From: Bacillota bacterium
Lineage (GTDB): Bacteria > Bacillota > Clostridia > Ch29
Reading direction: 5' to 3'
DNA: 64,000 bases
Assembly: GCA_028686075.1 (NCBI GenBank)
Contig: JAQUCT010000001.1
Coordinates: 9,953 to 73,952, forward strand
Part shown: positions 5,394 to 63,827 of the stretch, in pieces
Layout: each line of letters begins with the position of its first letter
Numbering within the stretch: position 1 is the stretch's first letter
Position numbers and translations under genes: made by a program
The notes under the pieces: generated by a model
What the model was told of the DNA's origin: nothing
The model's database searches: none
The model's input: only the letters and a program-made list of their open reading frames with translations

Positions 5394-6818
5394 ATGGGAA
5401 CTTTCTCGTCCGAGGCACTTTTGTTGATAATGTTAAGTACAGTTGTTGTTATCACAATCGGTGGTTTCATTGCAGTTTACTTTAAAAAAAAGACTGTGTC
5501 AAGTGAAGATTGGGCTATTGGTGGGAGAAAACTTCCGCCTTATGTAATCGTTTTTACACAGTTTGCAACTTTGGTTGGCGGAGGCGTACTCGTAGGTCAT
5601 GTTGGAATTGGGTATAATTTTGGACTTGCACCTATTATGTACGGTATATGTGGAGCTGCCGGGTGTTTTTTTATGGCGATCATAGCAAAATGGCTAAGGG
5701 AAAATGAATTTACTACTATTCCTGATATTTTGAAAAAGATTTATGGAGAAGATAACTTTTTATTGGTTTTTGCAGCTTTAATGGCAATGGTGGTTCCTTT
5801 TGGATGGATAGCCTCACAAATAACAGCATTTGGTAAATTGTATTCTTCAATAACCGGAATTGGTATGAATATTATTATTGTTGCTGTGGCATTAATATGT
5901 GTGTTGTTTACATTACCGTCAGGCTTTAACTCAGTTGCCTGGTCAGATTTTGTGTTTGGAGTTGTAATGTTAGGATTATGCGGCATAACAGCTTTCCAAG
6001 CAGTCCATATGGGAGGGGGATGGACTGATATAGTCAGTAACATACAGGACAAAACAATTATATCCTTTCCCGAAGGCCTTTTGTCTGCAGGCTTAACTAC
6101 AACGCTCCTCTGGTTTATTGCAGCAACTCCCGGAATGATGACAAACCAAATGACCCTGCAAAGAGTTTGTGCTGCAGACACAGTCAAAAATGCCCGAAGA
6201 ACATTAATAATCAGCGGAATTCTCATTGCCGCACTGGAAATTTGGGTTGTAGTTATGGGTGTATCTATCCGATCGTTAAATCCTGACTTGACAGGAGAGA
6301 TGGCGATGGGATGGTTTTTAACAACAATCCCTAAATGGACAGTCGCATTATTTGCAGGGTTTATTTCCACAACAATCATTACTACAGCCGATAGTGCTTT
6401 ACAGTCTGTTGCAGTGAATTTCACTCAAGATATCTATAAAAAACACATTAATGTGGGGGCATCAGACAAAAAATTGATGAGCGTTTCTCGAAAGGCAACG
6501 GTTATTGTAGCCATCTTGGCAATAATGTTGGCTATCGCCTTCCCAAGAGTGATGGACTTAATAATTGCCTCATATGCATATTCTGCGTCCGCATTACTTG
6601 TTCCCATTTATGCCGGCTATGCTTACAGCAAAAGAAGAACTCTTACGACAAAGGTGGGGAAGAACAGTATGATCGCGGGCCTTGTTGGATGTTTTATTGC
6701 TCAGATGCTGCACACTAGAATACCATATGCTATATATGGAATCCTAGTATCATATGTTGTTATGATAATAACAATAAAAGCTAATGAAAGTAAAAAACTC
6801 AGTACTGGAGGAAAATAA
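5394..6818 (+). CDS. Sodium:solute symporter (SSS family, PutP/PanF-like) transporter
   Basis: 474 aa, about 13 predicted TM helices, with the conserved SSS N-terminal region (DWAIGGRKLPPYV..., GGGVLVG). RBS GAGGAGA precedes ATG 5394. Confidence 0.8.
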   Translation: MGTFSSEALLLIMLSTVVVITIGGFIAVYFKKKTVSSEDWAIGGRKLPPYVIVFTQFATLVGGGVLVGHVGIGYNFGLAPIMYGICGAAGCFFMAIIAKWLRENEFTTIPDILKKIYGEDNFLLVFAALMAMVVPFGWIASQITAFGKLYSSITGIGMNIIIVAVALICVLFTLPSGFNSVAWSDFVFGVVMLGLCGITAFQAVHMGGGWTDIVSNIQDKTIISFPEGLLSAGLTTTLLWFIAATPGMMTNQMTLQRVCAADTVKNARRTLIISGILIAALEIWVVVMGVSIRSLNPDLTGEMAMGWFLTTIPKWTVALFAGFISTTIITTADSALQSVAVNFTQDIYKKHINVGASDKKLMSVSRKATVIVAILAIMLAIAFPRVMDLIIASYAYSASALLVPIYAGYAYSKRRTLTTKVGKNSMIAGLVGCFIAQMLHTRIPYAIYGILVSYVVMIITIKANESKKLSTGGK

Positions 6819-12592: not shown

Positions 12593-12730
12593 ACCGCCGT
12601 AACTCCCTTCTGATTGTCCTGAAATATATTATATCATAAATGCCATGTTAACCAATGAAAATATAGTATTCAACAAATAACAATAAATTCCTGCCAATAT
12701 CATAAAATAGCCTAATTACTAAAATACATA

Positions 12731-12932
12731 AGGCTTCATGAAACGGAAGCGCATGCTCAAAATGGTTTAGCAAGGAAACTCGCTGAAGCTTCGCAGAAAA
12801 ACCGTAGGCCTGGCAGAACGCCAGGCCAGGCTTTTGCGCCATGGAGGGCGCATAAAATGCGTTAGGTTTTTCAAGAAGCAAGGCTAAAGTTTCCTCTAAA
12901 GCATTTTTGCAAAAGCGGGTATTCATGAAGCC
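12731..12932. repeat. Intergenic repeat family 2, long copy (about 200 bp) with 11-bp terminal inverted repeats GGCTTCATGAA / TTCATGAAGCC and an internal hairpin-rich insert
   Basis: The sequence aggcttcatgaaacg-aagcgca-gct-aaaatggtttagcaagg ... ttccctctaaagcatttttgca-aa-cgggtattcatgaagcct is shared with 46357..46451. This copy carries about 105 extra bp containing three short hairpins (gaagcttc, cctggcagaacgccaggcc, gcgccatggagggcgc). Confidence 0.8.
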
Positions 12933-12980
12933 TAATTGCATTTGTCTGCAATATGAAACCTGTTTTTGTAAATAGGCTCC

Positions 12981-20774: not shown

Positions 20775-22022
20775 ATGGGTTCTGTCAATCATCCATTAAA
20801 CAAAACACTGTTTAAACATCGGCTGGACCCGGCCTTAAAGAACATGGCTTCCGCAAAAAAAACGCGGTGGCTTTCAGTCATAGTCCAGTCGGTGAACGGT
20901 ATTGACGAAAGGATTAAAAAACATATAAAAAAACACAGTGGCAGGATAACGAAGGATTATCCATTTATAAAAGCATGCAATGTTTTGCTACCGCCCTCCG
21001 CGATTAAACCGCTGGAGACTTTGAGCCAGGTTCACTACCTGTCTTTTAACCGTCCGGTTGCCGCCCATCTTAACAACCTCAAAACTGTTATGGCATCGGG
21101 CACCGCCCATAACCAGGGCCTTTCCGGGAGAGACATAAATGTAGCACTGTTGGACACAGGTACATACCCACACCCGGACCTAATCCGGCCGGCAAACCGT
21201 ATCCTTTGTTTCAAGGACTTCGTTAACGATCGTGAATTTGCCTACGACGACAACGGCCACGGAACATTTATCGCGGGTATTATTGCGGGAAACGGTTCCA
21301 TGTCAAAGGGGGAGTACGCCGGCACCGCTCTCGGGGCAGGGCTCATAAGCCTTAAGGTTTTAAACCAAAGCGGAAACGGCTGGACGTCCACCGTCCTGTC
21401 CGGAATGCAGTGGGTATACGACAACCGGGAAAAGTATAGAATAAAGCTGGCCTGCCTGCCCCTTGGCTGCTCCGGTTCCCTGGCCGCCGAAAACGACCCG
21501 CTGTCAAGGGCTGCCCAGGCCCTGTGGGATTTAGGTGTCGTCGTTTGTACTTCTGCAGGCAATAACGGGCCGGAGGTCTCCTGGATATCCTCGCCGGGCA
21601 TTAACCCAAACATTATAACCGTAGGTGCCCTTCAGAGTTTCGGAGGAACCGTTTCCCGCGACAATCCCCTTGCCCTCTTTTCCAGCAGGGGGTATACCGC
21701 CGACGGAAACCCGGGACCGGATTTCGTCGCCCCCGGCACAGCGATAACGTCCCTAAACTCGGACCCGTGTTTTATGCCCAAGTCTCCTCTTTCCCACAGG
21801 AGTACACGGCTGGATAATTATTATTGCCAGGGCACCGGCACTTCCGCAGCCTGTGCTGCCGTCGCCGGTACCATCTGCCTTTTGCTTGAAAAGCACAGGG
21901 ACCTTACCCCCGACGAAGTAAAGTCCCTTTTAAAACACAGCTGCAAAAGTTTAAACCTGCTTAAGGAGCAGCAGGGCTACGGCCTGCCGGACATAAACAA
22001 ATTATTATATATAACGCATTAA
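20775..22022 (+). CDS. Subtilisin-like serine protease (peptidase S8)
   Basis: Catalytic triad contexts LLDTGT (Asp), HGTFIAGIIAG (His), GTSAACAAVAG (Ser). The last 6 codons and stop lie in the head of repeat family 1. Confidence 0.8.
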   Translation: MGSVNHPLNKTLFKHRLDPALKNMASAKKTRWLSVIVQSVNGIDERIKKHIKKHSGRITKDYPFIKACNVLLPPSAIKPLETLSQVHYLSFNRPVAAHLNNLKTVMASGTAHNQGLSGRDINVALLDTGTYPHPDLIRPANRILCFKDFVNDREFAYDDNGHGTFIAGIIAGNGSMSKGEYAGTALGAGLISLKVLNQSGNGWTSTVLSGMQWVYDNREKYRIKLACLPLGCSGSLAAENDPLSRAAQALWDLGVVVCTSAGNNGPEVSWISSPGINPNIITVGALQSFGGTVSRDNPLALFSSRGYTADGNPGPDFVAPGTAITSLNSDPCFMPKSPLSHRSTRLDNYYCQGTGTSAACAAVAGTICLLLEKHRDLTPDEVKSLLKHSCKSLNLLKEQQGYGLPDINKLLYITH

Positions 22023-22209
22023 TAATATTACATTCCTTTATCTGTCATTCCGAAGAAGCGAAGCCCGAATAATCCAACTCTGTCGCTTAAGAGGGCGAAG
22101 CCTGAAGAATCTTGCTTAGGGGTAGACCCTTCACTATTGCAAGATCCTTCGCTACCGCTCAGGATGACAACCATTACGCTCAGGATGACACGTTATAAGA
22201 TGTAAAGTC
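22004..22209. repeat. Intergenic repeat family 1, copy 1: mosaic of inverted sub-repeats (module gtcattcYgaRGRGcgaagcccgaaRaatc and its complement tccttcgctNcgctcaggatgaca)
   Basis: Shares head (ttatatataaYgcattaataRtattacatt), internal modules and tail (gatgacaNgNtagaagatgtaaagtc) with 29269..29456 and 29791..29959. The tail module cgctcaggatgaca is tandemly duplicated. Confidence 0.85.
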
Positions 22210-22234
22210 TTAAGCACATTATTTATAGAATTAA

Positions 22235-22258
22235 AAAGGGCCGCTAAGCCCTTTTTTA
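22235..22258. terminator. Bidirectional Rho-independent terminator between convergent subtilisin and LysM-M23 genes
   Basis: aaaAAGGGCcgctaaGCCCTTttttat: 6-bp GC-rich stem flanked by an A-run and a T-run. Confidence 0.7.
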
Positions 22259-23680
22259 TCACTTCAGATAGTTTGTGGGATTGACCGGTGCGCCGAATTT
22301 CCTTACCTCAAAGTGCAGGTGGGGCCCGGTACTCCTGCCGGTGTTCCCAGACATTGCTATTGTCTGTCCTTTGTGTACCTTATCTCCCTTGGACACCAGA
22401 TTTTGCGAATTATGTCCGTAGTAGGTGGTAAATCCTTCCCCATGGTCTATTATAACCAGGTTACCATAGGTGCCCATCCTACCGGAGAATTGCACCGTGC
22501 CTCCATCCGCCGCCTTAACCGGGGTACCTATGGGGATTCCTATATCTATGCCGTTGTGCATTCGTCCCCCCCTCCGTCCGAAACCGGAGGTTATTTTCCC
22601 CCTTGCCGGATACGCAAAGGTTCCGGTACCCTGCCTTGGGGGCGGCGGCTTCGTGCCTACGGCAACCATCCTTGTAACCGGGTCCTTTATAACCTTTTCG
22701 TCCAATATTTCCCGGCCGGCCTCTGTGCCGTTTTCCCTTATTATCCTGGCGGTAATTTTCCTCTCGCCGTACCTTCCAGATATTTTTACTATCGATTCTC
22801 CCTTGTAGAACTCACTACTTTCCCTGTACTCGGTATCATAGGGTATATTCTCCTTGAGGGTGACTATTTCCTCGGTAACCACCGTTACAAAGGGTTTGGG
22901 TACAATCATGCTGAGCTGCTGCCCAATCTGCAGCTTTTTGGGGTCCACCTCGGGGTTCGCTTTTTCCAGGTCCTCTACAGTAATGTTGTGGTTTCGGGAT
23001 ATTCCCCAAAGGCTGTCCCCCCTGGAAACGGTATACACTTTACTCTCGATGGTACCGTTTAACAGGTATTTATAGGCATCCTCCGGGTCCATTATATCCT
23101 CAGGTTCTACCGGGCTGTCAACAAGCTCCACCCTTTCCTTTATGTCTATACCACAGAGGTCCACATCCTGCTCCTTCTGAGCAAAGACCTCCTTTACCCT
23201 TTCAAGAAGGTTCTGGGCCTTATCCATACCTACAACCGATAATACGGGTCTTCCGTCAATACAGAGGGTGATTGCTTTTTTTCTCAATTCAATATTTCTT
23301 TCAAGTTCTTTTTTTAGGCTTTCCTCATCCAATATGTTGTCTAACCTTTTATCTATTTTAATCTTTTTCACATTAAGTTCTGCAGTCAATACAAGGCCAT
23401 CGTCCCCCGCCAGAATTTCATCGTCCAGACGGTCCAGCACTTCCATGGCCATTTCTTGCTCCTTCACAATTCCTATGGGGGTACCGTTTAAGGATACCAT
23501 ATACCCGGTGCGGGATATCTCCGTATAAGCGTATACTGCTGCCAGCAGTACCACAATACAAACAACGGTTACAACAGCTTTTTTCTTCCCATGACCCGTC
23601 TTTTCTAAAAATCGTGCAACAAACTCCCTTACATGGTTTTCGTTAGACGGTTTATCCATTGTTCGTCCCCTTTCCTCCAT
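22259..23680 (-). CDS. Membrane-anchored LysM-domain M23 family peptidoglycan metalloendopeptidase
   Basis: N-terminal TM, LysM (YTVSRGDSLWGISRNHNITVEDLEKANP) and M23 core (HNGIDIG...GNLVIIDHGEGFTTYYGHNS...GPHLHFEV). Alternative start at 23659. Confidence 0.8.
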   Translation of the reverse strand: MEERGRTMDKPSNENHVREFVARFLEKTGHGKKKAVVTVVCIVVLLAAVYAYTEISRTGYMVSLNGTPIGIVKEQEMAMEVLDRLDDEILAGDDGLVLTAELNVKKIKIDKRLDNILDEESLKKELERNIELRKKAITLCIDGRPVLSVVGMDKAQNLLERVKEVFAQKEQDVDLCGIDIKERVELVDSPVEPEDIMDPEDAYKYLLNGTIESKVYTVSRGDSLWGISRNHNITVEDLEKANPEVDPKKLQIGQQLSMIVPKPFVTVVTEEIVTLKENIPYDTEYRESSEFYKGESIVKISGRYGERKITARIIRENGTEAGREILDEKVIKDPVTRMVAVGTKPPPPRQGTGTFAYPARGKITSGFGRRGGRMHNGIDIGIPIGTPVKAADGGTVQFSGRMGTYGNLVIIDHGEGFTTYYGHNSQNLVSKGDKVHKGQTIAMSGNTGRSTGPHLHFEVRKFGAPVNPTNYLK

Positions 23681-27501: not shown

Positions 27502-27577
27502 TGGTGACCCATCAGGGACTCGAACCCTGGACACCCTGATTAAGAGTCAGGTGCTCTACCGACTGAGCTAATGGGTC
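27502..27577 (-). tRNA. tRNA-Lys (anticodon CTT)
   Basis: 76-nt cloverleaf on the minus strand: GACCCAT-TA-GCTC-AGTCGGTAG-AGC-A-CCTGA-CTCTTAA-TCAGG-GTGTC-CAGGG-TTCGAGT-CCCTG-ATGGGTC-A-CCA, with an encoded CCA end and the conserved TTCGA T-loop. Confidence 0.9.
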
Positions 27578-27851: not shown

Positions 27852-29252
27852 TCAGCCGGCTATTTCCCTTGCCACTATTATTCCGGTCACCGATGCCTGC
27901 ATAAGGCCCCTTGTTATTCCCGCTCCGTCGCCTATGGTATACAAACCTTTAACAGCAGTCTGAAATCTGTTGTCAACCTCAACCTTGCTGCTGTAAAATT
28001 TGACTTCGCATCCGTAGAGCAGAGTGTTCCTCGAATAAAGATTGGGTGCCAACTTGTCAAAGGCCCGTAGTGCCTCCACGATGGATGTTAGATGCCGGTC
28101 TGGAAGTACAAAGCTTAAGTCCCCCGGAACGGCACTTTTTAGCGTAGGTACGGTGGTAGACTTCTTCAACCTGTCCGGGCTTGTTCTCCTGCCCTTTAGC
28201 AGGTCCCCCAGCCTTTGGACCATAATACCTCCGCCCGTCAACATGTTTGCAAGCTTTGCTATATATTTCCCGTATTCTATCGGCTGATTGAAGGGTTCGG
28301 TGAAGGTGGTGGATATAAGCAGAGCAAAGTTTGTATTGCCCGTCCGTAAACCTGGGTCTGAATAGCTGTGGCCGTTTACCACCACAAGCCCCTCCTCGTA
28401 ATGTTCCTCCGATACCATTCCGCCGGGATTCATACAAAATGTCCTGGCCTTGTTCTCAAAGGTGTCGGAATAGTAAATAAGCTTTGCCTCATAGAGGTCC
28501 CGGGTAAGATGGTCCATAACCGAATTGGGAACCTCCACCCTGACGCCTATATCCACGGCGTTGTTCCTTATGCCTATACCCAGCCTGACAGCCTGTTCCG
28601 AAAGCCAGAGAGATCCTCCTCTGCCCGGGGCCACCACCACATGGTTTGCCCCTATTTCCGTAACTTCGCCGTTTTTGTACCTTGCCCTTACCCCGGTTGC
28701 CTCACCGTCCGAAACAAGGACTTCCTCCACGGTTGTAAGGCCCCTAAACTCCACTCCCTTGTCTATCAGGTATTCATACATGGCCTTAAGCACATGGAAG
28801 GCTCTGTCGGTGCCAAGATGCCGAACCGGGCAGGGAACCAGTTTAATCCCATACCTTGACGCCTCATACACCAATTCCTCTATCCTTCTTTCATTAAGCC
28901 CGTATACCTCCGGCCCGGCACCAAACTTAAGATAAATATCATCGGCATATCCTATCAGTTCCTCCGCCTCCTCAGCGGATATATAATCGGTTATATTGCC
29001 GCCGACTTCCGGGCTCAGCGAAAGCTTACCGTCGCTGAAAGCTCCCGCCCCCGCCCAGCCGGTTATTATTGAGCAGGGGTCGCAGTTTACACATTTCCCT
29101 TCCCGGGCGGGACACTTTCTGCTGCTTATCTTCCTGCCCTTATCCAGCATAAGTATATCACAGTTCCCGTGCCCCGTAAGCTCCAAGGCGGTAAATATGC
29201 CGGCAGGCCCGGAACCTACAATTATTACATCATATTTATCCTTAAGTGCCAT
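27852..29252 (-). CDS. FAD-dependent oxidoreductase (uncharacterised FAD-dependent dehydrogenase family, COG2509-like)
   Basis: N-terminal dinucleotide-binding motif DVIIVGSGPAGIFTALEL, 466 aa, second GxGxxG-like region near the C-terminus (TIGDGAGITRG). Confidence 0.7.
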   Translation of the reverse strand: MALKDKYDVIIVGSGPAGIFTALELTGHGNCDILMLDKGRKISSRKCPAREGKCVNCDPCSIITGWAGAGAFSDGKLSLSPEVGGNITDYISAEEAEELIGYADDIYLKFGAGPEVYGLNERRIEELVYEASRYGIKLVPCPVRHLGTDRAFHVLKAMYEYLIDKGVEFRGLTTVEEVLVSDGEATGVRARYKNGEVTEIGANHVVVAPGRGGSLWLSEQAVRLGIGIRNNAVDIGVRVEVPNSVMDHLTRDLYEAKLIYYSDTFENKARTFCMNPGGMVSEEHYEEGLVVVNGHSYSDPGLRTGNTNFALLISTTFTEPFNQPIEYGKYIAKLANMLTGGGIMVQRLGDLLKGRRTSPDRLKKSTTVPTLKSAVPGDLSFVLPDRHLTSIVEALRAFDKLAPNLYSRNTLLYGCEVKFYSSKVEVDNRFQTAVKGLYTIGDGAGITRGLMQASVTGIIVAREIAG

Positions 29253-29268: not shown

Positions 29269-29456
29269 TATATATAACGCATTAATAGTATTACATTCCC
29301 TTATATGTCATTCTGAGGGCGAAACCCAAAGAATCCTACTTTGTCGTTCTGAAGAAGCGAAGCCCGAAGAATCTTTCTTGAAATTTACATAAGGTCCTTC
29401 GCTTCGCTCAGCATGACAAAAAGGTCGCTCAGCATGACACGCAAGACGATATAAAG
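29269..29456. repeat. Intergenic repeat family 1, copy 2
   Basis: tatatataacgcattaatagtattacattcc...tgtcattctgagggcgaaacccaaagaatc...tgtcgttctgaagaagcgaagcccgaagaatc...tccttcgcttcgctcagcatgaca(x2)...gatataaag; same orientation as copies 1 and 3. Confidence 0.85.
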
Positions 29457-29560
29457 CCATAAATACGTTATATATATCATAATCCTAAGATATAGTACCA
29501 GAGTATATCCTTTCAGTCAAATTGTGAATGACGGTAAAATAAAACAGCCCTGAGGCTGTC

Positions 29561-29767
29561 CTATTTCTTTTCGAAGTATTCGTTTAGGTCCCGCAAAAGG
29601 TCGTCGGCGTTTATTCCGTGGACCGCACTGGCCTCCTCTATACTTTCCCCCGAAGAGGCAGGGCATCCGATACAGTGCATACCGTGCTTCATGAATATTG
29701 AAGCGGTACTCCTGTCCATCATAAGCACCTGGGCAATGGTCATATCATTGGTAACTTTTTTCGACAT
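29561..29767 (-). CDS. DUF1858 domain protein (hybrid-cluster-protein-associated redox disulfide family)
   Basis: 68 aa with CIGCPAS motif; RBS AAGGGAGGG upstream of ATG 29767; bracketed by two copies of repeat family 1. Confidence 0.7.
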   Translation of the reverse strand: MSKKVTNDMTIAQVLMMDRSTASIFMKHGMHCIGCPASSGESIEEASAVHGINADDLLRDLNEYFEKK

Positions 29768-29790: not shown

Positions 29791-29959
29791 TTATATATAA
29801 TGCATTAATAATATTACATTACTTGTCATTATGACTTTTGTCTGTCATTCTGAGGGCGAAGCCCGAAGAATCCGACTTTGTCGTTCTGAACGTAGTGAAG
29901 AATCTTCTTGGATAGATCCTTCGCTTCGCTCAGGATGACATGCTAGAAGATGTAAAGTC
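29791..29959. repeat. Intergenic repeat family 1, copy 3
   Basis: ttatatataatgcattaataatattacatt...tgtcattctgagggcgaagcccgaagaatc...tgtcgttctgaacgtagtgaagaatc...tccttcgcttcgctcaggatgaca...tagaagatgtaaagtc. Confidence 0.85.
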
Positions 29960-30135
29960 TTTATCATGTTATATATAGCATTACCAATATTGTTAATATT
30001 AATATCCCTCAAAACCCTTTACAAACAAAAACCGACCATATATCACGGACTTTTGTTATCAACAGTAGGTGTATAGATATCCACATTTATCCACACTATC
30101 CACAGAGATATACACAAACACACATTCTTATTTCG

Positions 30136-31470
30136 CTATTCTTCCTTAAATTTCGCCATGTCCGCAAACTTTGTAAACTTGTCCAGCCATACCAGCTCCA
30201 CCATACCGGTAGGGCCGTTCCTCTGTTTTGCCAGCAATATTTCGGCGATACCTTTTTTTTCTGTATCGGGATTATAGTATTCATCTCTGTACAGGAACAT
30301 CACCACATCGGCGTCCTGCTCTATTGCCCCGGATTCCCTTAAGTCGGACAGCATTGGACGGTGCTCCGATCGCATTTCCGGTGCCCTGCTAAGCTGTGAC
30401 ATGGCCAGAACAGGGCAGTCCATCTCCCTGGCCAGGGCTTTAAGCGACCTGGATATTTCGGATATTTCCTGCTGTCTGCTTTCAGACCTACCGCTTCCCT
30501 GCATAAGCTGAAGGTAATCGATAAGCACCAGCTCCAGACCTCTCTCAAGCTTGAGCCTTCTGCACTTGGAACGCATCTCCGCCACCGTTATCCCCGGCGT
30601 ATCATCTATATAGATATTTGCCTCCGAAAGCCTGCTCACTGCAGCAGCAAGCTTGGGCCAGTCGTCGTCCCCGAGATTTCCCGTACGAAGCTTATGGCTG
30701 TCTATATTAGCCTCGGCACAAATCATACGGTTTACCAGCTGCTCCTTTGACATCTCAAGACTGAATATGGCCACCGAAACCTTGGCTTTCAGGGCTGCGT
30801 ACTGGGCAATATTAAGTGCAAAGGCGGTCTTTCCCATGGAAGGCCTTGCGGCCACCAGTACCAAATCACTTCTTTGCAACCCGGAGGTCTTACTGTCAAT
30901 GTCCATGAAACCGGTAGGAACCCCGGTGAGCCTGCCCTTGGTATTGTACAGTTCCTCTATCCTGTTAAAGCTGGAAACAAGTATATCCTTAAGTAGAATA
31001 AACCCCTTGGAGGTCCTCCTCTGGGAAATATCAAATATCCCCTTTTCTGCAAACTCTATTATATCCGCCGCTTCCTTCGCCGCTTCAAAACTCATATCGG
31101 ATATTTCTCCACAGGCTCTAATAAGCCTTCTCAATAAAGCCTTTTCCTGGATAATCCTGGCGTAATGGTCTACATTGGCTATGGTGGGGACGCTAGAGGA
31201 CAGATCGGTCAAAAAAGCCACACCTCCGACGGCTTCAAGGGTATCCCTCTGTCTAAGCTGCTCCGAAAGAGTTACAAGGTCAACCGGCTCACCCTTTTCA
31301 AAGAGCTCCACCACCGCCTCAAAGACTTCCCTGTGGCTGTCCTTGTAAAAATCCTCCGGCTTTATATGCTCGGAAACGGTTATTATTGCATCCCTGTCAA
31401 GCAGCATAGCACCTAAAACTGACTGCTCTGCTTCTATGCTGTGGGGAGGTATTTTTCCTATGGCCTTCAT
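30136..31470 (-). CDS. dnaB: Replicative DNA helicase DnaB (DnaC in Bacillus nomenclature)
   Basis: N-terminal domain (SIEAEQSVLGAMLLD), Walker A ARPSMGKT, RecA-like C-domain. ATG at 31470 (MKAIGK) is preceded by AGGTGGTGG; the ORF-track GTG start at 31482 lies inside that RBS. Confidence 0.9.
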   Translation of the reverse strand: MKAIGKIPPHSIEAEQSVLGAMLLDRDAIITVSEHIKPEDFYKDSHREVFEAVVELFEKGEPVDLVTLSEQLRQRDTLEAVGGVAFLTDLSSSVPTIANVDHYARIIQEKALLRRLIRACGEISDMSFEAAKEAADIIEFAEKGIFDISQRRTSKGFILLKDILVSSFNRIEELYNTKGRLTGVPTGFMDIDSKTSGLQRSDLVLVAARPSMGKTAFALNIAQYAALKAKVSVAIFSLEMSKEQLVNRMICAEANIDSHKLRTGNLGDDDWPKLAAAVSRLSEANIYIDDTPGITVAEMRSKCRRLKLERGLELVLIDYLQLMQGSGRSESRQQEISEISRSLKALAREMDCPVLAMSQLSRAPEMRSEHRPMLSDLRESGAIEQDADVVMFLYRDEYYNPDTEKKGIAEILLAKQRNGPTGMVELVWLDKFTKFADMAKFKEE

Positions 31471-31482
31471 ATTATCCACCAC

Positions 31483-46332: not shown

Positions 46333-46356
46333 TAGGCTTTGGTAAAAACCATCATC

Positions 46357-46451
46357 AGGCTTCATGAAACGAAAGCGCAAGCTTAAAATGGTTTAGCAAG
46401 GCACAAGTTCCCTCTAAAGCATTTTTGCATAAACGGGTATTCATGAAGCCT
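46357..46451. repeat. Intergenic repeat family 2, short copy (about 95 bp) between convergent genes
   Basis: aggcttcatgaaacgaaagcgcaagcttaaaatggtttagcaaggcacaagttccctctaaagcatttttgcataaacgggtattcatgaagcct; the terminal inverted repeats are identical to those of 12731..12932. Confidence 0.8.
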
Positions 46452-46461
46452 AATCTAAAAA

Positions 46462-50711: not shown

Positions 50712-51434
50712 TCAGCTTAAAGGCTTTTTCGCTGGTCTTCCTGCTTTTCTTGGGTATTCCGACCCGGTGGCTGTTAACTTTTCTATTATTATTATATAAT
50801 GGGTAATATCTGTAAAGGGCAGGCGGAAGTCCCGGACCTGGGACATACACCCCCCTAAAATGCCTATTGCCCTATCGGCTTGGTCTATCTCTTCAATATA
50901 TCCTGGCCCTTTCATCGCAAGAAAAACTCCCCCTGTTTCAACGAAGGGCAGACAGTATTCCGATACCACCGACATATGAGCCACCGCCCTGGAAAAGCAC
51001 AGCTGATACTTTTCCCTGTGCGCTACATCCCTTGCTAATTCCTCAGCCCTTCCGTGGATGGGAACAGCACCCTTTAGTCCTAGCCTCGCAATCACACACT
51101 CCAGGAACACTACCCTTTTTTTAAGAGAATCCAGTAGCGTAATTTCCAGGTCGGGATACATTATTTTTAAAGGAATTCCGGGAAACCCGGCCCCCGTTCC
51201 CACATCAATAGCTTTAAGTCCATCGTTCACATATCCTGTTGCGGCACAGGTAATGGAATCAAGAAAGTGCTTTATAATAACGTCCCGATCTTCGGTAATT
51301 GCGGTAAGGTTCATTCTTTTGTTCCAATCGGTCAGCATCCTCATATATTCCATCAGTTGGTCAACCTGTTCTCCTGTAACTGTAACCCCCAGTCCGTGTG
51401 CCCCTTTTTTTAAAAGCTCCACACCCACTTTCAT
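50712..51434 (-). CDS. rsmG: 16S rRNA (guanine527-N7)-methyltransferase RsmG (GidB)
   Basis: SAM-binding motif ([16 protein letters not shown]), 240 aa, position downstream of mnmG. Confidence 0.9.
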
Positions 51435-53320
51435 TTCCTTTCCGCCCTTCTTCTCTGTTCGAGGTATACCATAAGTACCGATATATCCGCCGGCGAAACC
51501 CCTGTTATCCTTGAAGCATGGCCTATTGAATCCGGTTTAATCCCGTCTAGTTTCTCCTGGGCCTCCCGCCTCAATCCCTTTATTCCGAAATAATTGATAT
51601 CCGGGTTAAGCTTTTTACCCTCCATCCTTTTAAATTGCTCCACCTGGATAAGCTGTTTTTTGATATAGCCTTCATATTTAATTTCCGTTTCCACCTGTTT
51701 ACCTATGGCCCTCGGCAGGGTCGGCCTTTCCTTATCCAGCACCCCAAGGCTTTCATAGTCGATTTCTGGACGCTTTAAAAGCTCGTACAAGCTTATCCCT
51801 GATTTTATCTCCGAGCTTTCCCTTTCCCTCAAAAAAGCGTTTATTTCCTCTAAAGGGGATACAACCATACTTTTAAGCCTTTTTATTTCCCGTCGGAGTT
51901 TTTGCTGTTTATCTATGAATTTTGCGTACCTTTCTTCGGTAACCAGTCCTATATCATAACCTTTTTGGGTTAACCGGCCATCGGCATTGTCCTGCCTTAG
52001 TATAAGCCTGTATTCCGCCCTCGAGGTCATTATCCTATAGGGCTCCCGGGTTCCCTTTGTAACCAGATCATCTATCAGCACGCCTATATAGGCCTCAGAC
52101 CGGTCAAGTATTACCGGCTTTTGTCCCCTTATTTTTCTAACCGCATTGATTCCCGCCATTATACCCTGGGCCGCCGCCTCCTCGTATCCTGAGCTGCCGT
52201 TTATCTGACCGGCACAGAACAGTCCGTTTATCCCCTTGCACTCCAGCGACAAATTAAGTTGCGTTGGGTCAATACAGTCATATTCTATTGCATAGGCGGT
52301 CCTCATTATATTTACCTTTTCCAACCCCTTTATTGACCGGTAAAACTTCACCTGGACGTCCTCCGGAAGGCTGGTGGACATGCCCTGTACATACATCTCT
52401 TTTGTATCCCTTCCTTCCGGCTCGATAAAAAGCTGGTGTGACTGCTTGTCCGGGAAAACGGTGAGTTTGCTCTCTATCGAAGGACAGTACCTTACCCCAA
52501 CGCCTGTTATTTCCCCTCCGTACAGTGCTGACCTTTCTATATTTTCCATCACTATCCTGTGGGTATCCTCGTTGGTATACCCCAGCCAACAGGAAATCTG
52601 TTCCCGATCCAGGTTTTCGAACTCGTTCAGAAAGGAAAAGGGAACAATATCCCGATCTCCCCTTTGCTCGATCAAAACTGAATAATCAATAGAATCCCTG
52701 TGTACTCTGGCCGGTGTCCCCGTTTTAAACCTCATAAGCTTAAGCCCCGCCTTTTCCAGGTTTCCGGAGAGTTCATTCGCGGCAAAAAGGCCGTAAGGAC
52801 CACCTTCATAGCTAATTTTCCCTATGTGGATTTTGCCCTTTAGATACACTCCTGTGGTAAGTATAACGGCTTTTGCCCTGAAGATCGCCCCGTTCTTGGT
52901 TTTTATACCTCTGCATTCGTCCTGCTCAACAATTATGTCAGTTACCTCGTCCTGCTTAATATCCAGATTGGGCTGGCTTTCTAGGGTCCTTTTCATTTCG
53001 GACTGGTAGTCTGTTTTATCAGCCTGGGCTCTCAGCGAATGAACTGCCGGACCCTTTCCGGTGTTTAGCATTTTTATCTGTATGAAGGTCTTATCTATCA
53101 GTACCCCCATTTCCCCTCCCAGAGCGTCTATCTCCCTCACCAAATGTCCCTTGCCAGTACCCCCTATGGCTGGATTACAGGCCATGAGTGCTATACTATC
53201 AAGATTAAGGGTAACCACCAGGGTCTTGCAGCCCAGCCTTGCGGCGGCAAGGCTCGCTTCACACCCCGCATGCCCGGCACCCACCACTATTACATCATAG
53301 TCTCCTGCGTAATACTCCAT
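51431..53320 (-). CDS. mnmG: tRNA uridine 5-carboxymethylaminomethyl modification enzyme MnmG (GidA)
   Basis: FAD-binding N-terminus [14 protein letters not shown], 629 aa, overlaps rsmG start by 4 nt. Confidence 0.92.
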
Positions 53321-53330
53321 TATACCCCTC

Positions 53331-54722
53331 CTACTTGCCTATGCAGAAGTCCTCAAATATCCTGTCCACAATGTCCTCGGTTATATTGTCCCCGGTTATT
53401 TCCCCCAAGGCTTCCAGGGCTGCCTTTATATCTATCGAAACAAGGTCTATCGGCAGGCCGTTTCCCATTGCCTTTATTGCATCCTCAAGGCTCCTTTTGG
53501 CCCTCCTAAGACAGTCCGCGTGCCTTACCCTGGTAACCATAACTGCATCCCCGCTTGTTATGCCGTCCGAAAATACCAAATTATATATGGTATCCTCAAG
53601 GACATCTAGTCCCATATCCTTTATAAGGGACATGTGTATCACCGGCCATTCATGGTATTTTTTAGTAATTTCCTCTACGTTTAGCTTTATTTCCAGGTCG
53701 GTTTTGTTTATTAACACTATGGCCCTTTTATCCTTAATTATATCCAGTATTTTCCTGTCATCCTGTGAAAGGGGCCTTGCGGCGTCCAGCATTAGCAGCA
53801 CCAAGTCGGCATTTTCCATATATTCCCTAGTTTTTTCAACTCCTATACTTTCCACCAGGTCGTCGGTTTCCCTGATACCCGCCGTATCCATTAACCTTAG
53901 CGGAATACCTTTTAAGTTTATGTACTCCTCTATTACATCCCTGGTGGTCCCCGGTACTTCGGTAACTATCGCCCTGTTCTCCCTAAGCAGCGCATTAAGA
54001 AGGGAGGACTTGCCCACGTTAGGCTTTCCTATAATTGCCGTTTTAAGACCCTCCCGTACTATCCTGCCTCCGGAGGACGTTGACAAAAGCCTTTCCACCA
54101 TATCCTCCGCCTGCCGGGTATCCATAAGCAGTACCTCCCTGGTCTGTTCCTCTATGTCATGTTCGGGGAAATCTATCGAAGCTTCCACTCCGGCCATTAC
54201 CGACAAAAGTTTATCTTTTATTTCATCCAAATACCGGGACAGTCTTCCCTCAAGCTGGCTTACAGCAGTCTTTAAGCCCATCTCAGATTTCGAATGAATA
54301 ATATCCATAACCGCCTCTGCCTGGGACAGGTCAAGTCTTCCGTTTATGAAGGCCCTTTTGGTAAACTCCCCCGGCTCCGCCACCCTTGCTCCAAGGTCTA
54401 CAATTATCTCCAGTATCTTTCTCACCGCCGCGTTTCCACCATGACAGTGAATTTCGACAACGTCTTCCCTCGTATACGTATGCGGTGCTTTCATTGTAGC
54501 CACCAAAACCTCATCAATTATTTCCCCGCTATCGGGATTATATATATGGCCATAGTTCATCCTTCTGCCCGGCAGCTCCTCCAGAGGCTTGCCGGATACC
54601 GCCCTGAAGGCCCTGGCCGCAATCCTTTTCGCCTCGGGACCGCTTATACGCACTATCCCAATGCCGCTTTCCCCCGGGGCAGTGGCTATTGCGGTAATTG
54701 TATCCCCTTCCCTTATTATCAT
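53331..54722 (-). CDS. mnmE: tRNA modification GTPase MnmE (TrmE)
   Basis: N-terminal TIAAIATAPG motif, G-domain ([12 protein letters not shown]), C-terminal CIGK. ATG at 54722 has RBS GAGGTGGTG; the ORF-track N-terminal extension is unsupported. Confidence 0.92.
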
Positions 54723-54839
54723 AGCGCACCACCTCAAATGTATTATACCACTTTCATTATTACCATTGACTGTTTCAATTACTCTTTTAAATGGACTGAA
54801 AAATTTAAAGCAGGTGCATAGCACCTGCTGACAGTTGGT

Positions 54840-55472
54840 CTATCTTAAGCTTACTATTACCTTTCTGTACGGTTCTTCACCTTCACTGTGAGTTGCAACC
54901 CTGTCATCGCCTTGCAATGCGGAATGTATTACCCTTCTTTCATAGGGGTTCATGGGTTCTAAAGCTATATCCTTTCCTATCCTTACCGCCTTATATGCAA
55001 TGTTCTTTGCCAGCTGTATCAGAGTTTCCTCTCTTTTCTTTCTGTAATTCTCGGTGTCCACAATAACACGGTAATAATGCTCAGGATATTTCCTGTTAAC
55101 CACAAGACCCGTTATATACTGTATGGAATCTAAGGTCTGGCCCCTTCTTCCTATCAAAACTCCCATATTGGGCCCCTTAAATTCCGCCCGTATAACGCTG
55201 CCCTCTTCCGGTTTAACCATCACCCTACCCTCAACGCCCATTACATCAAGCAGTTTTTCTAGGAATTCCTTTGCCACATCGGCAGGCGTTACTTTAAGTG
55301 TAACCATAACCTTTCCCGGTTTATTATTAATAAGCCCCAGTAGGCCCTTTTCCGGCTCTTCAAGTATGTCAATCTTGACATCGTTTAAGTCAACACCAAG
55401 TTCTTCTATAGCCAGTTGAACCGCTTCCTGAATCGTCTTGCCCGTTTTTACAACAGTTTTTCCAGTCGTCAA
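54840..55472 (-). CDS. jag: Jag (SpoIIIJ-associated KH/R3H RNA-binding protein)
   Basis: KH and R3H domains (...IHSALQGDDRVATHSEGEEPYRKVIV), 4-nt overlap with yidC. Confidence 0.85.
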   Translation of the reverse strand: MTTGKTVVKTGKTIQEAVQLAIEELGVDLNDVKIDILEEPEKGLLGLINNKPGKVMVTLKVTPADVAKEFLEKLLDVMGVEGRVMVKPEEGSVIRAEFKGPNMGVLIGRRGQTLDSIQYITGLVVNRKYPEHYYRVIVDTENYRKKREETLIQLAKNIAYKAVRIGKDIALEPMNPYERRVIHSALQGDDRVATHSEGEEPYRKVIVSLR

Positions 55473-56161
55473 TTGGATTCCTCCTTAACCGTCCCTCCCC
55501 GGCCCAAACCAAAATACTGCTGCACTATCTGGAATGTATTACTCAGCACCCAATACAGAGTAACTCCGGCGGGAAAACTGAAACTAAAGTACCCAATCAT
55601 GAGGGGCATTATTGTGTTCATGGTGTTCTGAGTGCCCTCAACGTTTTTGGGCGTCACCATCTTTGACTGATAATAAGTGGTACCGGCTGCTAGTATCGGC
55701 AATATCCACTTAATTGGATCTTTATAGTCCTTTAATAAACTTCCTGTTGCCGACAGGTCTTTTATCCATAAAAAACTCTTTCCAACGGCATCATAGGTCT
55801 CGGGAGTAAATACATATGTTTCAGGTAGCCTTAAAACCTGGAATAATGCAAACAGTATAGGAAGCTGTAGTAACAGGGGCAGACAACCGCTGGTAAAAGG
55901 GTTCGCGTTGTGCTGCCTGTACAGCTCCATTGTCTTTTCATTGAGCTTTTGTTTATCGTGGCCATACTTCTTCTGCAGTGCCTTAATCTTCGGATTAAGC
56001 TCCTGCATCTGTTTCATGGACTTTGTCTGTTTAATAGTAAGTGGCATGAGAATGAGTTTTACCAATATTGTAAATATTACTATGGAAAGCCCATAACTGT
56101 TGACCAGGCTATATATATAAAATAGCAGCTTTCCCAAAGGTACAGCAATTGCGTTAAACAT
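55469..56161 (-). CDS. yidC: Membrane protein insertase YidC/OxaA (SpoIIIJ-type)
   Basis: Five TM helices, conserved YidC core, 230 aa. Confidence 0.88.
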   Translation of the reverse strand: MFNAIAVPLGKLLFYIYSLVNSYGLSIVIFTILVKLILMPLTIKQTKSMKQMQELNPKIKALQKKYGHDKQKLNEKTMELYRQHNANPFTSGCLPLLLQLPILFALFQVLRLPETYVFTPETYDAVGKSFLWIKDLSATGSLLKDYKDPIKWILPILAAGTTYYQSKMVTPKNVEGTQNTMNTIMPLMIGYFSFSFPAGVTLYWVLSNTFQIVQQYFGLGRGGTVKEESN

Positions 56162-56182
56162 TTTTCTCCCCCTAATCTGTGG

Positions 56183-56392
56183 TTATTTTACGGGGTCATA
56201 CCCTCCCGGATGGAACGGATGACACTTCAGTATCCTTTTACCAGCCATGAACGTCCCCTTTATTGCTCCATACTTGTCTATGGCTTGAATTGCATATTCT
56301 GAACAGGTCGGATAGAACCTGCACTTTCCTGTCTTAATGGGTGAAATAAACGTTCTATATAAATTTATAATAAAAATGAATACCCTTTTCAT
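56183..56392 (-). CDS. yidD: Membrane protein insertion efficiency factor YidD
   Basis: 69 aa, conserved FYPTCSEYA motif. Confidence 0.85.
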
Positions 56393-56739
56393 TTCAACCC
56401 TTCTTTTTCTGCGAGTTTATGCCTTATTAGTAAATCCGCCATCCACTTTTCTATGTCTTTATATCCCGCCTCTTTTGCCTGTACCCGGGCTATAAATACC
56501 AGGTCATAGCCCTTTGTAATCCTCCCGGAATACCTCCTGTATGTTTCCTTAATAAGTCTTTTAATTCTGTTTCTTACAACGCTCTTTCCGACTTTTCTGC
56601 TAACACTTACGCCGATTCTGTTATACTCTTTCCCGTTTTGAATCACATACATTACCAATACGGGATTGGCCTTACTGCTGCCTCTATTATAGACTTTTGA
56701 GAATTCTTTGCTTTTTCTTATAGAAATTAAATCCGCCAT
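56389..56739 (-). CDS. rnpA: Ribonuclease P protein component RnpA
   Basis: RNR motif ([12 protein letters not shown]); start ATG 56739 (MADLISIRK); an alternative upstream ATG at 56769 has no RBS. Confidence 0.88.
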
Positions 56740-56911
56740 AGGAACCCTTCTTTTGAACTGTTCCCGCATTCAAAATAGGTCTATATAGGTCTATTATTGA
56801 TTCATTATTCCTATAGAACGCACATAGAACAGTATAAATACTTAATCCGTGTTCTGACAGCTATTTTTCCCTCCCCGAAAAAATGTATAAAAAGGCCCCC
56901 TGATAGCGGCC

Positions 56912-57046
56912 TTATGCTGTCAACCTCTTTCTTCCCTTTCTTCTTCTTCTTTTTAACACCCTTCTTCCGGTGCTTGTTTTCATCCTCTTCCTGAAACCAT
57001 GTTCCTTCTTTCTCTGCCTTTTTTTAGGCTGATAAGTCATTTTCAT
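56912..57046 (-). CDS. rpmH: 50S ribosomal protein L34
   Basis: Minus-strand translation [44 protein letters not shown] (44 aa); not in the ORF track because it is under 60 aa. Confidence 0.92.
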
Positions 57047-57139
57047 AGGTCACACCCCCTCTTCCTTGTTTGGGCTTTTAGAGCATATCCCCCCGAATTA
57101 TATATAGATTATAGCCCTATTGAATATTTGTGTCAAGAA

Positions 57140-57410
57140 AATGAAATTGTGGATAATGCAAAAATCGGTGTTATTTTTTGTGGATATGTTGCCGATAATT
57201 ATTGATAACACCGGAATAATTTGTTATCATAAAATAGCATCTTCAGATGCCCGGGGCGATATCCGTAATTATACTAAAATCCTTTATCTGTAGCAATATA
57301 AGGATTACAACCGATAGCTCCGGTACATATAGAAACGGTTCTTATCTTTGTTTATTAATTACCCGGGGGATGAAAAATATTCCTAATCAATGTGGATATT
57401 TGTGGGGACA
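57140..57410. other. oriC upstream module: DnaA-box cluster between rpmH and dnaA
   Basis: TGTGGATAA (57148..57156, perfect), TGTGGATAT (57179..57187), TGTGGATAT (57391..57399), TGTGGGGAC (57401..57409), plus weaker TTATCTGTA/TTATCTTTG boxes, all in an AT-rich spacer. Confidence 0.75.
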
Positions 57411-57432
57411 ACCTATATAAGGAGGCAATACA

Positions 57433-58776: not shown

Positions 58777-58797
58777 AACCCCTTTTCTTGGGGATAT

Positions 58798-59012
58798 CCG
58801 GTTGATAACCGGTTGATAACCTGTTAAGTAATCTATATGGAATAAATAACCATAGGCATAATGTGTATAGTGTGGAAAAGGATACACCGATTAATAACAA
58901 TCGGTCAACAGATGAATGCGTTTGTCCCGCTGCAGTCCGGACACTTTTCCACATATCAACACCCCCTACTACTATTACTACTATATATTTATATATTTAT
59001 ATATAAAAAACT
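58798..59012. other. oriC downstream module with DnaA boxes and AT-rich DNA unwinding element
   Basis: Tandem ccggTTGATAACC repeat (58798..58822), inverted pair TGTGGAAAA (58871..58879) / TTTTCCACA (58945..58953), then the 100 percent AT tract atatatttatatatttatatataaaaaa (58983..59010) immediately upstream of dnaN. Confidence 0.7.
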
Positions 59013-59032
59013 TGGTTTTGGAGGTTATTCAC

Positions 59033-60136: not shown

Positions 60137-60178
60137 AATAAGCGACAGTGAAATGGATGGTATGCGGGAGATGGTGAT

Positions 60179-60397
60179 GTGGAAAAACTACTTATAAAAG
60201 GGGACTATATAACCCTCGGCCAACTTCTCAAACTGTCTGGTATCGTCCAAACGGGCGGCCAGGCAAAATTTATGATTGCGGACGGAAGGGTTAGGATAAA
60301 TGGCCGTCTAGTCCTTCAAAGGGGTAAAAAGGTTTACCCCGGGGATATAGTGGGTTTAGACGGTAGCGACGTCATGGAAGTGAAGTCCGGGGAGTAG
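60179..60397 (+). CDS. yaaA: S4-domain RNA-binding protein YaaA
   Basis: 72 aa S4 fold (…GQLLKLSGIVQTGGQAKFMIADGRVRINGR…), GTG start with GGGAG RBS; conserved between dnaN and recF. Confidence 0.8.
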   Translation: MEKLLIKGDYITLGQLLKLSGIVQTGGQAKFMIADGRVRINGRLVLQRGKKVYPGDIVGLDGSDVMEVKSGE

Positions 60398-60436
60398 GGG
60401 TAAAAAACCGATGATTGCCTGATTGGAGTGGATGGG

Positions 60437-61549: not shown

Positions 61550-61576
61550 CCGGCCCGTTGTCAGGAGGAGATAAAA

Positions 61577-61834: not shown

Positions 61835-61904
61835 CATTCATAAGTGCCGGCTCTGGGGATTCCTAGAGCCTTTTTTTAAAAAAAGAACTATACAATATAA
61901 TTAA

Positions 61905-63827
<1,923 letters not shown>

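Follow-up and report, generated by a model that had tools for sequence, protein, structure and literature searches.

The question addressed here is what kind of repeat occupies three intergenic positions in a 64,000-nucleotide stretch of DNA (hereafter, the window) from a Bacillota bacterium (contig JAQUCT010000001.1, positions 9,953 to 73,952 of the forward strand, assembly GCA_028686075.1), and what the short hairpins inside it are for. The three copies, designated A, B and C, are 182-218 bp long, non-coding and in the same orientation, and each runs from a common head through hairpin modules, placed in either orientation, to a common tail. They are probably members of a family of non-autonomous insertion elements, similar to miniature inverted-repeat transposable elements (MITEs), that carry hairpins of the type associated with the Ssn nucleases in an uncultured Bacillota/Clostridia lineage. 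What is new is best filed as the payload of these MITEs, a very widespread variant of the Ssn-type hairpin that is unlisted, as judged by the published search motif.

Copy A occupies positions 22008-22225 (218 nt), copy B positions 29271-29474 (204 nt) and copy C positions 29794-29975 (182 nt), all on the plus strand. These spans are set by taking as target duplication the TA that flanks each copy, at 22006-22007 and 22226-22227 for A, 29269-29270 and 29475-29476 for B, and 29792-29793 and 29976-29977 for C. The common AT-rich head reported by the first-pass annotation, an earlier reading of the sequence by itself, was recovered: the 29-nt head TATATATAAYGCATTAATARTATTACATT is found without mismatch in 3/3 copies, at 22006, 29269 and 29792 on the plus strand, where shuffled sequences are expected to give 0 matches, and over these 29 nt the heads of the three copies differ at two transitions only. 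The conserved tail is likewise present in all three copies in a MAFFT alignment, the mean column identity of which is 74%. The extent of the repeat, however, had been underestimated, since conservation runs ~18 nt beyond the reported end at 22209, to ...CACATTATTTATA / ...CAYRTTATATATA.

When compared with each other, head and tail form imperfect terminal inverted repeats (TIRs) of ~50 nt, ending in TATATAACG/CGTTATATA. In copy B, a repeat finder delimits arms of 49 nt that are 73% complementary, with a perfect terminal TATATAACG/CGTTATATA; in copy A, the left TIR is the head TATATATAACGCATTAATAATATTACATT (22006-22034, +). Short (182-218 nt), non-coding and bounded by TIRs, the units have the defining features of a MITE. 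The earlier statement that they have no coding capacity is correct in general, but not for copy A, within whose head an S8 peptidase gene ends, with its final four codons (YITH) and its stop codon (22020-22022); this is the only overlap with an open reading frame (ORF). Because three copies share a strand by chance in 1 case in 4, and because the element is near-palindromic, no conclusion is drawn from the shared orientation.

Scans with the head and the modules revealed no fourth copy in the 64 kb window. At least six further copies, which have the same termini but vary in the number of modules, were found elsewhere in the same metagenome populations, on other contigs, together with one solo head, which makes about ten sites in all. 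The 7 contigs returned by the metagenome scan with the head sequence come from the same few samples, and the contig known to carry three copies is not among them. The solo head, 33 nt without modules, occurs in L202 (4134-4159) and L203 (61-86), ~10 nt upstream of the ribosome-binding site (RBS) of a gene whose start codon is ~25 nt away and which follows an HD-domain gene. Either the copy has been truncated, or a promoter/operator-like sequence has been reused.

How did the copies come to be where they are? To answer this, the orthologous loci of relatives were fetched through homologues of the flanking proteins, and the spacers were compared. Empty orthologous sites exist for 3/3 copies; the relatives that have them share 72-89% identity with the host in the neighbouring proteins. 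The single TA at each empty site corresponds to the TA on both sides of the insert in the host. The site of copy C is empty in 3/3 relatives compared (L206, L208 and L210): the empty site is ggtaatgcTAataatt, read as ggtaatgc-TA-ataattaaaaggagg in L206, whereas the host has ggtaatgc-TA-[TATATAACATG...GCATTATATA]-TA-ataactaaaggg, that is, flanks of the form ggtaatgcTA[...]TAataact. For copy B, the interval from the promoter-like TTGACT-17-TACTAT to the RBS is uninterrupted in L208, and the insert is missing in L210 too; the host has 204 nt inserted at a TA. For copy A, the spacer between the converging genes is 23 nt (L218) or 21 nt (L219) as against 236 nt in the host, the native ttacTAgatt (...ttacTAgattaataaaaggg) corresponding to ttatTA[...]TAgaat (...ttatTA[...]TAgaattaaaaaggg) and the C-terminus of the S8 peptidase changing from INRLLD* in the relative to INKLLYITH* in the host. 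What inserted at TA, on three occasions, is the composite as a discrete unit.

An alternative would be that the copies are not independent, being parts of a larger segmental duplication or derived from an rRNA or tRNA fragment, and copies B and C do lie only 523 nt apart in the same orientation. However, the sequences flanking the three copies are unrelated, as are the genes around them, the similarity does not extend beyond the TA-flanked ends, and a separate empty site exists for each copy. The clean empty sites for 3/3 copies rule out segmental duplication and demonstrate past mobility. As to the other source, neither Rfam nor rRNA or tRNA sequences match the element, even at E<=10, and the sole Rfam match of the region is a separate tRNA at 27505-27577. 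The chance that the copies are non-independent is therefore negligible, and the first-pass annotation was justified in treating them as independent insertions that are not derived from rRNA or tRNA.

The insertions differ in age. Copies A and C are confined to the host lineage and are thus the newer ones, while copy B is present at the same place, in decayed form, in the closest relative, L206 (neighbouring protein 89% identical). The eroded copy B of L206 spans 5745-6000; its distal inverted repeat has been deleted together with the native TTGACT-17-TACTAT promoter, and the flavin adenine dinucleotide (FAD)-dependent oxidoreductase gene of L206 is preceded by element sequence only. This arrangement hints that the element head may supply promoter activity.

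As a unit, the element resembles RUP of Streptococcus pneumoniae and Correia/NEMIS of Neisseria, which are also non-coding sequences of 100-220 bp with TIRs and an apparent TA duplication, located next to genes, co-transcribed with them and present in size variants that differ in internal modules. It differs from them in having no sequence similarity to either, an interior made of Ssn-type hairpins and no identified partner insertion sequence (IS). RUP is attributed to IS630-Spn1, and mobilisation in trans by a TA-targeting transposase has been proposed for it. In the present case, too, a trans-acting, TA-targeting DDE transposase of the IS630/Tc1-mariner type may move the element via its inverted repeats, since TIRs enclosed by two TAs are the signature of such cut-and-paste elements. 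An autonomous IS with matching ends was found neither in the window nor on the host contigs, and copies B and C have no BLAST match among plasmids or phages. The empty sites, unrelated flanks and TIRs bear out the earlier suggestion of a miniature mobile mosaic comparable to RUP/BOX elements or to repetitive extragenic palindromes (REPs) and their bacterial interspersed mosaic elements (BIMEs).

We now turn to the interior. Each copy contains one or two forward modules and one to one-and-a-half reverse modules of 25-31 nt, the general form of which is TGTC-ATTCY-GA-G(0-2)GC-GAA-GC-C(0-2)-GA-RGAAT-C; the full forward module is TGTC-ATTCT-GA-GGGC-GAA-GCCC-GA-AGAAT-C, and the core form is TGTC-ATTCT-GA-GC(GAA)GC-GA-AGAAT-C. 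The forward modules noted in the first pass begin at 22044, 22082, 29307, 29343, 29844 and 29880, and their reverse complements end at 22168, 29417 and 29939. In a scan of the 64 kb window for the 5' half of the module, ten matches were obtained, all of which lie within the three elements. The tag TGTC is present in 11/11 full or half modules of the window, and is followed by AT in 8/11 and by GC or GT in the other 3 (A2, B2 and C2).

In copy A, two decayed forward modules, A1 (GTCATTCCGAAGAAGCGAAGCCCGAATAATC, 22044-22074, +), which does not fold on its own, and A2 (GTCGCTTAAGAGGGCGAAGCCTGAAGAATC, 22082-22111, +; repeat-finder family D5), are followed by the reverse module A3 (GTCATCCTGAGCGGTAGCGAAGGATC, 22143-22168, -), which has an intact hairpin, ...(((((..((....))..)))))., with a z score of -2.1. 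Copy B contains an intact forward hairpin, B1 (GTCATTCTGAGGGCGAAACCCAAAGAATC, 29307-29335, +; z -2.9), a decayed forward module, B2 (GTCGTTCTGAAGAAGCGAAGCCCGAAGAATC, 29343-29373, +; repeat-finder family D6), and a reverse module with a decayed outer stem, B3 (GTCATGCTGAGCGAAGCGAAGGACC, 29393-29417, -). In copy C, the first forward module C1 (GTCATTCTGAGGGCGAAGCCCGAAGAATC, 29844-29872, +) is perfect, with 5 bp, tandem G.A, 4 bp and a GAA loop (-5.5 kcal/mol, z -2.7), its second forward module C2 (GTCGTTCTGAACGTAGTGAAGAATC, 29880-29904, +) differs at 2/25 positions from a module (GTCATTCTGAACGCAGTGAAGAATC) beside an Ssn-type gene in a Clostridia metagenome-assembled genome (MAG; locus L212), and its reverse module C3 (GTCATCCTGAGCGAAGCGAAGGATC, 29915-29939, -) is an exact 25-mer found across bacterial groups. 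The tail sub-module described earlier as tandemly duplicated in two copies (CGCTCAGNATGAC, in A and B, with a 21-nt period) is in fact the 5' half of the module: the half-modules A4 (GTCATCCTGAGCG, 22177-22189, -) and B4 (GTCATGCTGAGCG, 29426-29438, -) start 21 nt 5' of A3 and B3, respectively, on the minus strand.

Does the structure reside in the single module or in the whole element? DNA folding of the intact modules A3, B1, C1 and C3 gives ...(((((..((((...))))..)))))., in which the tag is unpaired, a layout that is the same as that of the NTS repeat of Neisseria discussed below. The z scores of the whole-element folds are -4.2 to -6.1 in B and C, which is strong, and -1.4 to -2.4 in A, which is weak. 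The long hairpin proposed in the first pass is thus predicted for B and C and weakly for A, but the structure under selection is the hairpin within the module, as follows from covariation among modules of other bacteria.

The pattern used to collect such modules, GTCATNCTGA-N(0-2)-GCGAAGC-N(0-2)-GAAGNATC, fixes 22 bases, and ~0.6 matches to it are expected by chance in 596 Gb. The 25-nt core was found in 68 stretches of viral contigs and in at least 120 stretches of species-representative genomes. Judging from the record titles, the core is nearly unchanged in about 20 major bacterial groups among the matches listed, including Acidobacteriota, Nitrospirota, Planctomycetota, Patescibacteria, Bacteroidota, Chloroflexota, Bacillota, Verrucomicrobiota, Gemmatimonadota, Omnitrophota, Cyanobacteriota, Campylobacterota, several classes of Pseudomonadota, and others.

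Covariation was assessed in 212 distinct occurrences, all of which are outside the window. The two free stem positions form a Watson-Crick pair in 210 occurrences, G.T in 2 and a mismatch in 0 (T-A 111, C-G 77, G-C 17, A-T 5), although the marginal frequencies predict pairing in only ~42%. Insertions around GCGAAGC are complementary in 12/17 cases (G/C in 11, GG/CC in 1), the other 5 having a single extra C. In addition, adjacent inverted modules often differ at the variable pair, as in L014 and in window copy C, where C-G stands beside T-A. Since neighbouring inverted modules carry different pairs, the conserved pairing is within the module and not arm-to-arm. The modules thus belong to a family of hairpins that is selected for intramolecular pairing and, as described below, linked to Ssn genes.

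The modules of this wider family also share the arrangement seen in the window. An inverted partner occurs within 150 nt of 42% of them, and the 5' half-module is iterated upstream only (12/194 upstream as against 0/194 downstream) with a modal period of 21 nt, which equals the period in copies A and B. In some loci, for example L101, L107, L111, L115, L124 and L036, the 5' half (GTCATYCTGAGC) is iterated two to four times with a period of ~19-21 nt. We know of no mechanism for such directional iteration. A full-text literature search with the core sequence on both strands returned no relevant paper, and no matching Rfam family was found for the window or 17 module loci of other bacteria at gathering thresholds or for the 21.9-30.1 kb region at E<=10; the Rfam matches in those scans were one tRNA and one unrelated riboswitch only. 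A hammerhead ribozyme was also considered for the CUGA-stem-GAA of the module and rejected, as the module has no N7-G8-A9 core and no Rfam hammerhead is matched at E<=10.

What kind of gene is connected with these hairpins? When the 2807 ORFs located within 1.5 kb of modules were compared all-against-all by BLAST, no family was present in more than 11/188 module-bearing loci, but this method overlooked short GIY-YIG genes. A targeted scan of the 188 loci showed that all three small GIY-YIG genes present there lie within 125 nt of a module. Four further homologues were then fetched via a protein database (from two Clostridia MAGs, one Thermodesulfovibrio and one Chloroflexota), and GTCAT-type modules stand beside the gene in 4/4 of them, on both sides in three. 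Overall, modules lie within 130 nt of the small GIY-YIG gene (92-109 aa) in 7/7 loci, and on both sides of it in 5.

In Neisseria, NTS (CGTCATTCCCGCGMAVGCGGGAATCYRG, an extended dRS3) and Ssn-related motifs (SRMs) flank ssnA, which encodes a 94-aa single-domain GIY-YIG protein that modulates natural transformation (Chenal et al. 2025, PMC11893778). By tblastn against a gonococcal chromosome, we located a 94-aa GIY-YIG homologue among 9 canonical NTS repeats in 3.3 kb. Two module-flanked proteins, P0150 of a Clostridia MAG and the protein of L069, are 48-49% identical to this 94-aa protein over its full length, and a third (L087) is 40% identical to it by tblastn. From the 48-49% identity to an NTS-flanked protein, the genes beside the widespread module would belong to the Ssn family. 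Searches of NCBIfam and PDB with the GIY-YIG proteins returned no named family and no solved relative.

Some technical observations on these genes should be mentioned. Many Ssn-family proteins are encoded on contigs of 0.5-2 kb, which fits assemblies that break at the flanking repeats, and some gene calls extend into modules (for example, the L087 protein has the C-terminus ...DSSLRSE). The gonococcal sequence used above (L220, NZ_CP119140.1) is a 2.17 Mb Neisseria gonorrhoeae chromosome that is filed as 'plasmid' and has 12 annotated features.

The family to which the first-pass annotation could not match the repeat can now be named for the module. CGTC-tagged REPs have the tag CGTC or TGTC (or CCTC) and a stem that opens with complementary A/T then T/A; dRS3 is family CGTC-1 among them and 'lacks a dedicated transposase' (Di Nocera et al. 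2013, PMC3733652). The module agrees with these REPs in its TGTC tag, a stem starting with AT, a short unpaired tail, frequent inverted dimers and the lack of a known dedicated transposase. With NTS and SRMs it shares a (Y)GTC 5' tag, a stem of the form ATTC...GAAT, a purine-rich loop and a 3' C, as is apparent when NTS, CGTC-ATTCCCGC-GMAV-GCGGGAAT-C, is compared with the module, TGTC-ATTCTGAGC-GAA-GCGAAGAAT-C. Both are directional and intergenic, often occur as inverted pairs and clusters, and flank small single-domain GIY-YIG genes on both sides. By its sequence, the module is a variant of the TGTC/CGTC-tagged REPs (PMC3733652), which include dRS3/NTS and the 'Ssn-related motifs' (PMC11893778).

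There are also differences. The module has a 3-nt loop and a stem broken by tandem G.A pairs; and it is nearly invariant across the groups listed above, in contrast to NTS-type SRMs, for which covariation with the nuclease has been described (PMC11893778). The known CGTC-tagged REP families have uninterrupted stems of 8-9 bp and loops of 4-5 nt and are distributed over 5 phyla, mostly in Alphaproteobacteria; Bacillota go unmentioned in that paper (0 occurrences of Firmicutes or Clostridi-; PMC3733652). Unlike NTS/SRM, moreover, the modules of the window are packaged in a TIR-bearing, TA-inserting element.

Because tagged hairpins in intergenic clusters of alternating orientation are also found in REP/BIME systems, mobilisation of the modules by a RAYT, a Y1 HUH transposase of the IS200/IS605 superfamily, has to be considered. 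Both REP/BIMEs and the Neisseria intergenic mosaic elements (NIMEs) are between-gene mosaics of short tagged hairpins with alternating orientation and variable module number, and one IS200-like Y1 gene does occur in our collection (L137, 4560-5054, Acidobacteriota MAG), with modules 220-600 nt away on both sides. However, this is the sole Y1 gene in 1.49 Mb of module-bearing loci and is not directly flanked, no neighbour family is enriched in the 188 loci, and all three GIY-YIG genes of the set as well as the four fetched independently are directly flanked by modules. REPs of E. coli and Pseudomonas have the tag GTAG, a Y1 transposase partner and neither TIRs nor a target duplication, in contrast to the TGTC tag and TIRs of the present element; a composite with TIRs and TA flanks is not a product of Y1 transposition. 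NIMEs are arrays bounded by dRS3 repeats, whereas the elements of the window are discrete TA-flanked units. CGTC REPs, furthermore, were found without a dedicated transposase (PMC3733652). We therefore regard a RAYT-driven system as very improbable.

If the copies are MITE-like carriers of Ssn-type hairpins, as we favour, the hairpins could act as follows. Modules that become single-stranded in replication, transformation or conjugation would fold into hairpins, on either strand. SsnA binds its hairpin only in single-stranded DNA and only on one of the two strands, and its cut lies immediately upstream of the hairpin; Ssn nucleases acting on such hairpins are described in Neisseria and Wolbachia (PMC11893778). 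By analogy, a cognate Ssn nuclease encoded elsewhere in the genome may bind and nick the module hairpins, and this nicking would affect recombination or uptake of the flanking DNA. As a side effect, stable RNA structure would be added to the putative untranslated regions (UTRs) in which the copies lie, namely the 3' end of the S8 peptidase gene and the leaders of the genes for the FAD oxidoreductase and DUF1858 proteins.

Several points weigh against this reading. The module GTCATYCTGAGCGAAGCGAAGRATC fails the published SRM motif, HGTCWYN(0-2)YYVSBRHN(0-5)WNVSBRGN(0-2)RNCYNB, which as a regular expression finds the NTS controls and the 9 sites around the gonococcal gene but none in the window. 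Its loop of 3 nt, as compared with 4-5 nt in CGTC REPs, and the two G.A mismatches in its stem (5 bp + tandem G.A + 2-4 bp, GAA loop) also place it outside the stem/loop definition of those REPs, and cleavage of the tandem-G.A variant in the host is what one would expect only by extension from Neisseria. The element termini are ~36-50 nt from the nearest module, whereas the Neisseria nuclease cuts a few nt 5' of its motif, so Ssn is unlikely to cut the element ends or to excise the composite. The flanking TA, which we infer from its symmetry to be a target duplication, is indistinguishable from a TA forming the outermost base pair of the inverted repeats. Scans of the 64 kb window and of ~60 kb on other contigs of the same metagenome populations turned up neither an Ssn gene nor a transposase, so both the mobilising and the hairpin-binding enzymes are putative for the host. 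Finally, decay has left 5/9 full-length modules of the window unable to fold by themselves, which means that many copies are probably relics.

The last point leads to the main rival, namely that the copies are inert: dead MITEs in a host with no cognate Ssn, in which modules persist by descent and any effects on UTRs are incidental. Besides the decayed modules, the copies are only ~74% alike, copy B is old, being common to a relative with an 89% identical neighbouring protein and heavily eroded there, and ~120 kb of host-population sequence yielded no Ssn gene. On the other hand, that search covered a small fraction of the genome, modules C1 and C3 are perfect, and the heads are identical except for two transitions, which points to recent activity or constraint; copies A and C are newer insertions specific to the host lineage. 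On balance, we consider complete inertness unlikely, though it deserves more weight than any other alternative.

Another possibility is suggested by the gene context of the copies. Copy A lies between the converging 3' ends of genes for an S8 peptidase (20775-22022, +) and an M23/LysM/G5 peptidase (22259-23680, -), as assigned by Pfam, and upstream of the terminator common to both genes, a GC-rich hairpin with A and T runs (aaaaagggccgctaagcccttttttat, 22233-22260, no strand assigned) that is outside the element and is also present at the empty sites. Copy B is directly upstream of the FAD-dependent oxidoreductase gene (27852-29252, -), between the RBS and a predicted native sigma-70-type promoter (TTGACT-17-TACTAT, with TG; 29492-29520, -) that is conserved at the empty site of L208. 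Copy C separates a replicative (dnaB-type) helicase gene (30136-31482, -) from the DUF1858 gene (29561-29767, -) that follows, and lies immediately before the RBS of the latter. In B and C, the RBSs start 2-11 nt beyond the element ends. The earlier view that all copies lie at gene ends is therefore accurate for A, between converging 3' ends, but not for B and C, which stand directly upstream of start codons. If the predicted promoter is used, copy B would be part of the 5' UTR.

Accordingly, the element might function at the RNA level, as a cis-acting UTR structure for mRNA stability, as an RNase III target or in translation control, perhaps with outward promoters in its AT-rich ends. UTR RNA roles have been shown for Correia/NEMIS and REP elements. 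All three copies are in regions that are likely transcribed, with B downstream of its predicted promoter and the RBSs 2-11 nt away, the whole-element RNA folds of B and C are strong (-53 to -74 kcal/mol, z -4.6 to -6.1), the solo head of L202/L203 is directly upstream of an RBS, and L206 lacks the native promoter and has the element alone before the gene. However, A is transcribed head-to-tail and B and C tail-to-head, so there is no preferred RNA strand, the insertions are recent and the genes of relatives work without them, and there is no Rfam family. A promoter consensus scan found no sigma-70-like site within head or tail, and an outward promoter is kept as a minor possibility. In addition, SsnA of Neisseria neither binds nor cuts RNA (PMC11893778). 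A primary function in RNA has, in our estimate, a small chance of being correct.

The wider significance depends on how far the MITE-borne, Ssn-type reading can be generalised. Ssn nucleases and their hairpin motifs were described in 2025, mostly in Gram-negative bacteria, and ~29% of the ssn loci lack an SRM (PMC11893778). We suggest tentatively, and with more doubt than for the elements themselves, that the tandem-G.A module GTCATYCTGAGCGAAGCGAAGRATC may represent an unreported, very widespread class of Ssn-associated hairpins that in Bacillota has become the payload of TA-inserting, lineage-specific MITEs. If the suggestion is true, Ssn target sites would spread through genomes by transposon hitch-hiking, and there would be one highly conserved or often-transferred Ssn specificity rather than many co-evolving nuclease-motif pairs.

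Apart from this, the analysis adds a motif variant that is missed by the published search pattern and is near-identical in about twenty groups among the matches listed, as well as a Gram-positive-type case in which the hairpins are carried in a discrete, TA-inserting, transposon-like unit, with three dated insertions and clean empty sites. It supplies candidate substrates (C1 and C3) and a candidate enzyme, P0150, the Clostridia Ssn homologue. For annotation, it accounts for a class of spurious small ORFs and contig breaks, and flags UTR insertions that may alter the expression of neighbouring genes.

As for the host, its placement among uncultured Bacillota/Clostridia follows from the names carried by the closest proteins and from the gene order S6-SSB-S18, L9, Lon-like, DnaB, DnaD/DnaI-like. 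The window has matches in JGI contig Ga0265294_10001385 and in k141_440161 of ENA ERZ27247361. The region 51431-63827 of the window is the origin region, with mnmG (51431-53320, -), dnaA (57433-58776, +) and dnaN (58916-60136, +), and, after these, ORFs similar in size to recF and gyrB; the gene strand switches around 56-57 kb, near which the origin lies, and the three elements sit in the left replichore. Three tandem DnaA boxes (ATATCCACA, TTATCCACA and CTATCCACA; 30077-30104), located between the helicase gene and copy C, are kept in L206, L208 and L210. This cluster is ~27 kb from dnaA and looks like a secondary cluster, not the origin. The tRNA gene mentioned above (27505-27577, - strand; Rfam, 73 bits) lies between the DnaI-like and FAD oxidoreductase genes. 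The window also contains a second, unrelated family of intergenic repeats, at 12727-12941 and 46353-46458, which has 12-nt inverted ends (AGGCTTCATGAA...TTCATGAAGCCT) and no Rfam match; the shared parts of its two copies are ~92% identical, and the 12.7 kb copy has an extra GC-rich insert of ~110 nt.

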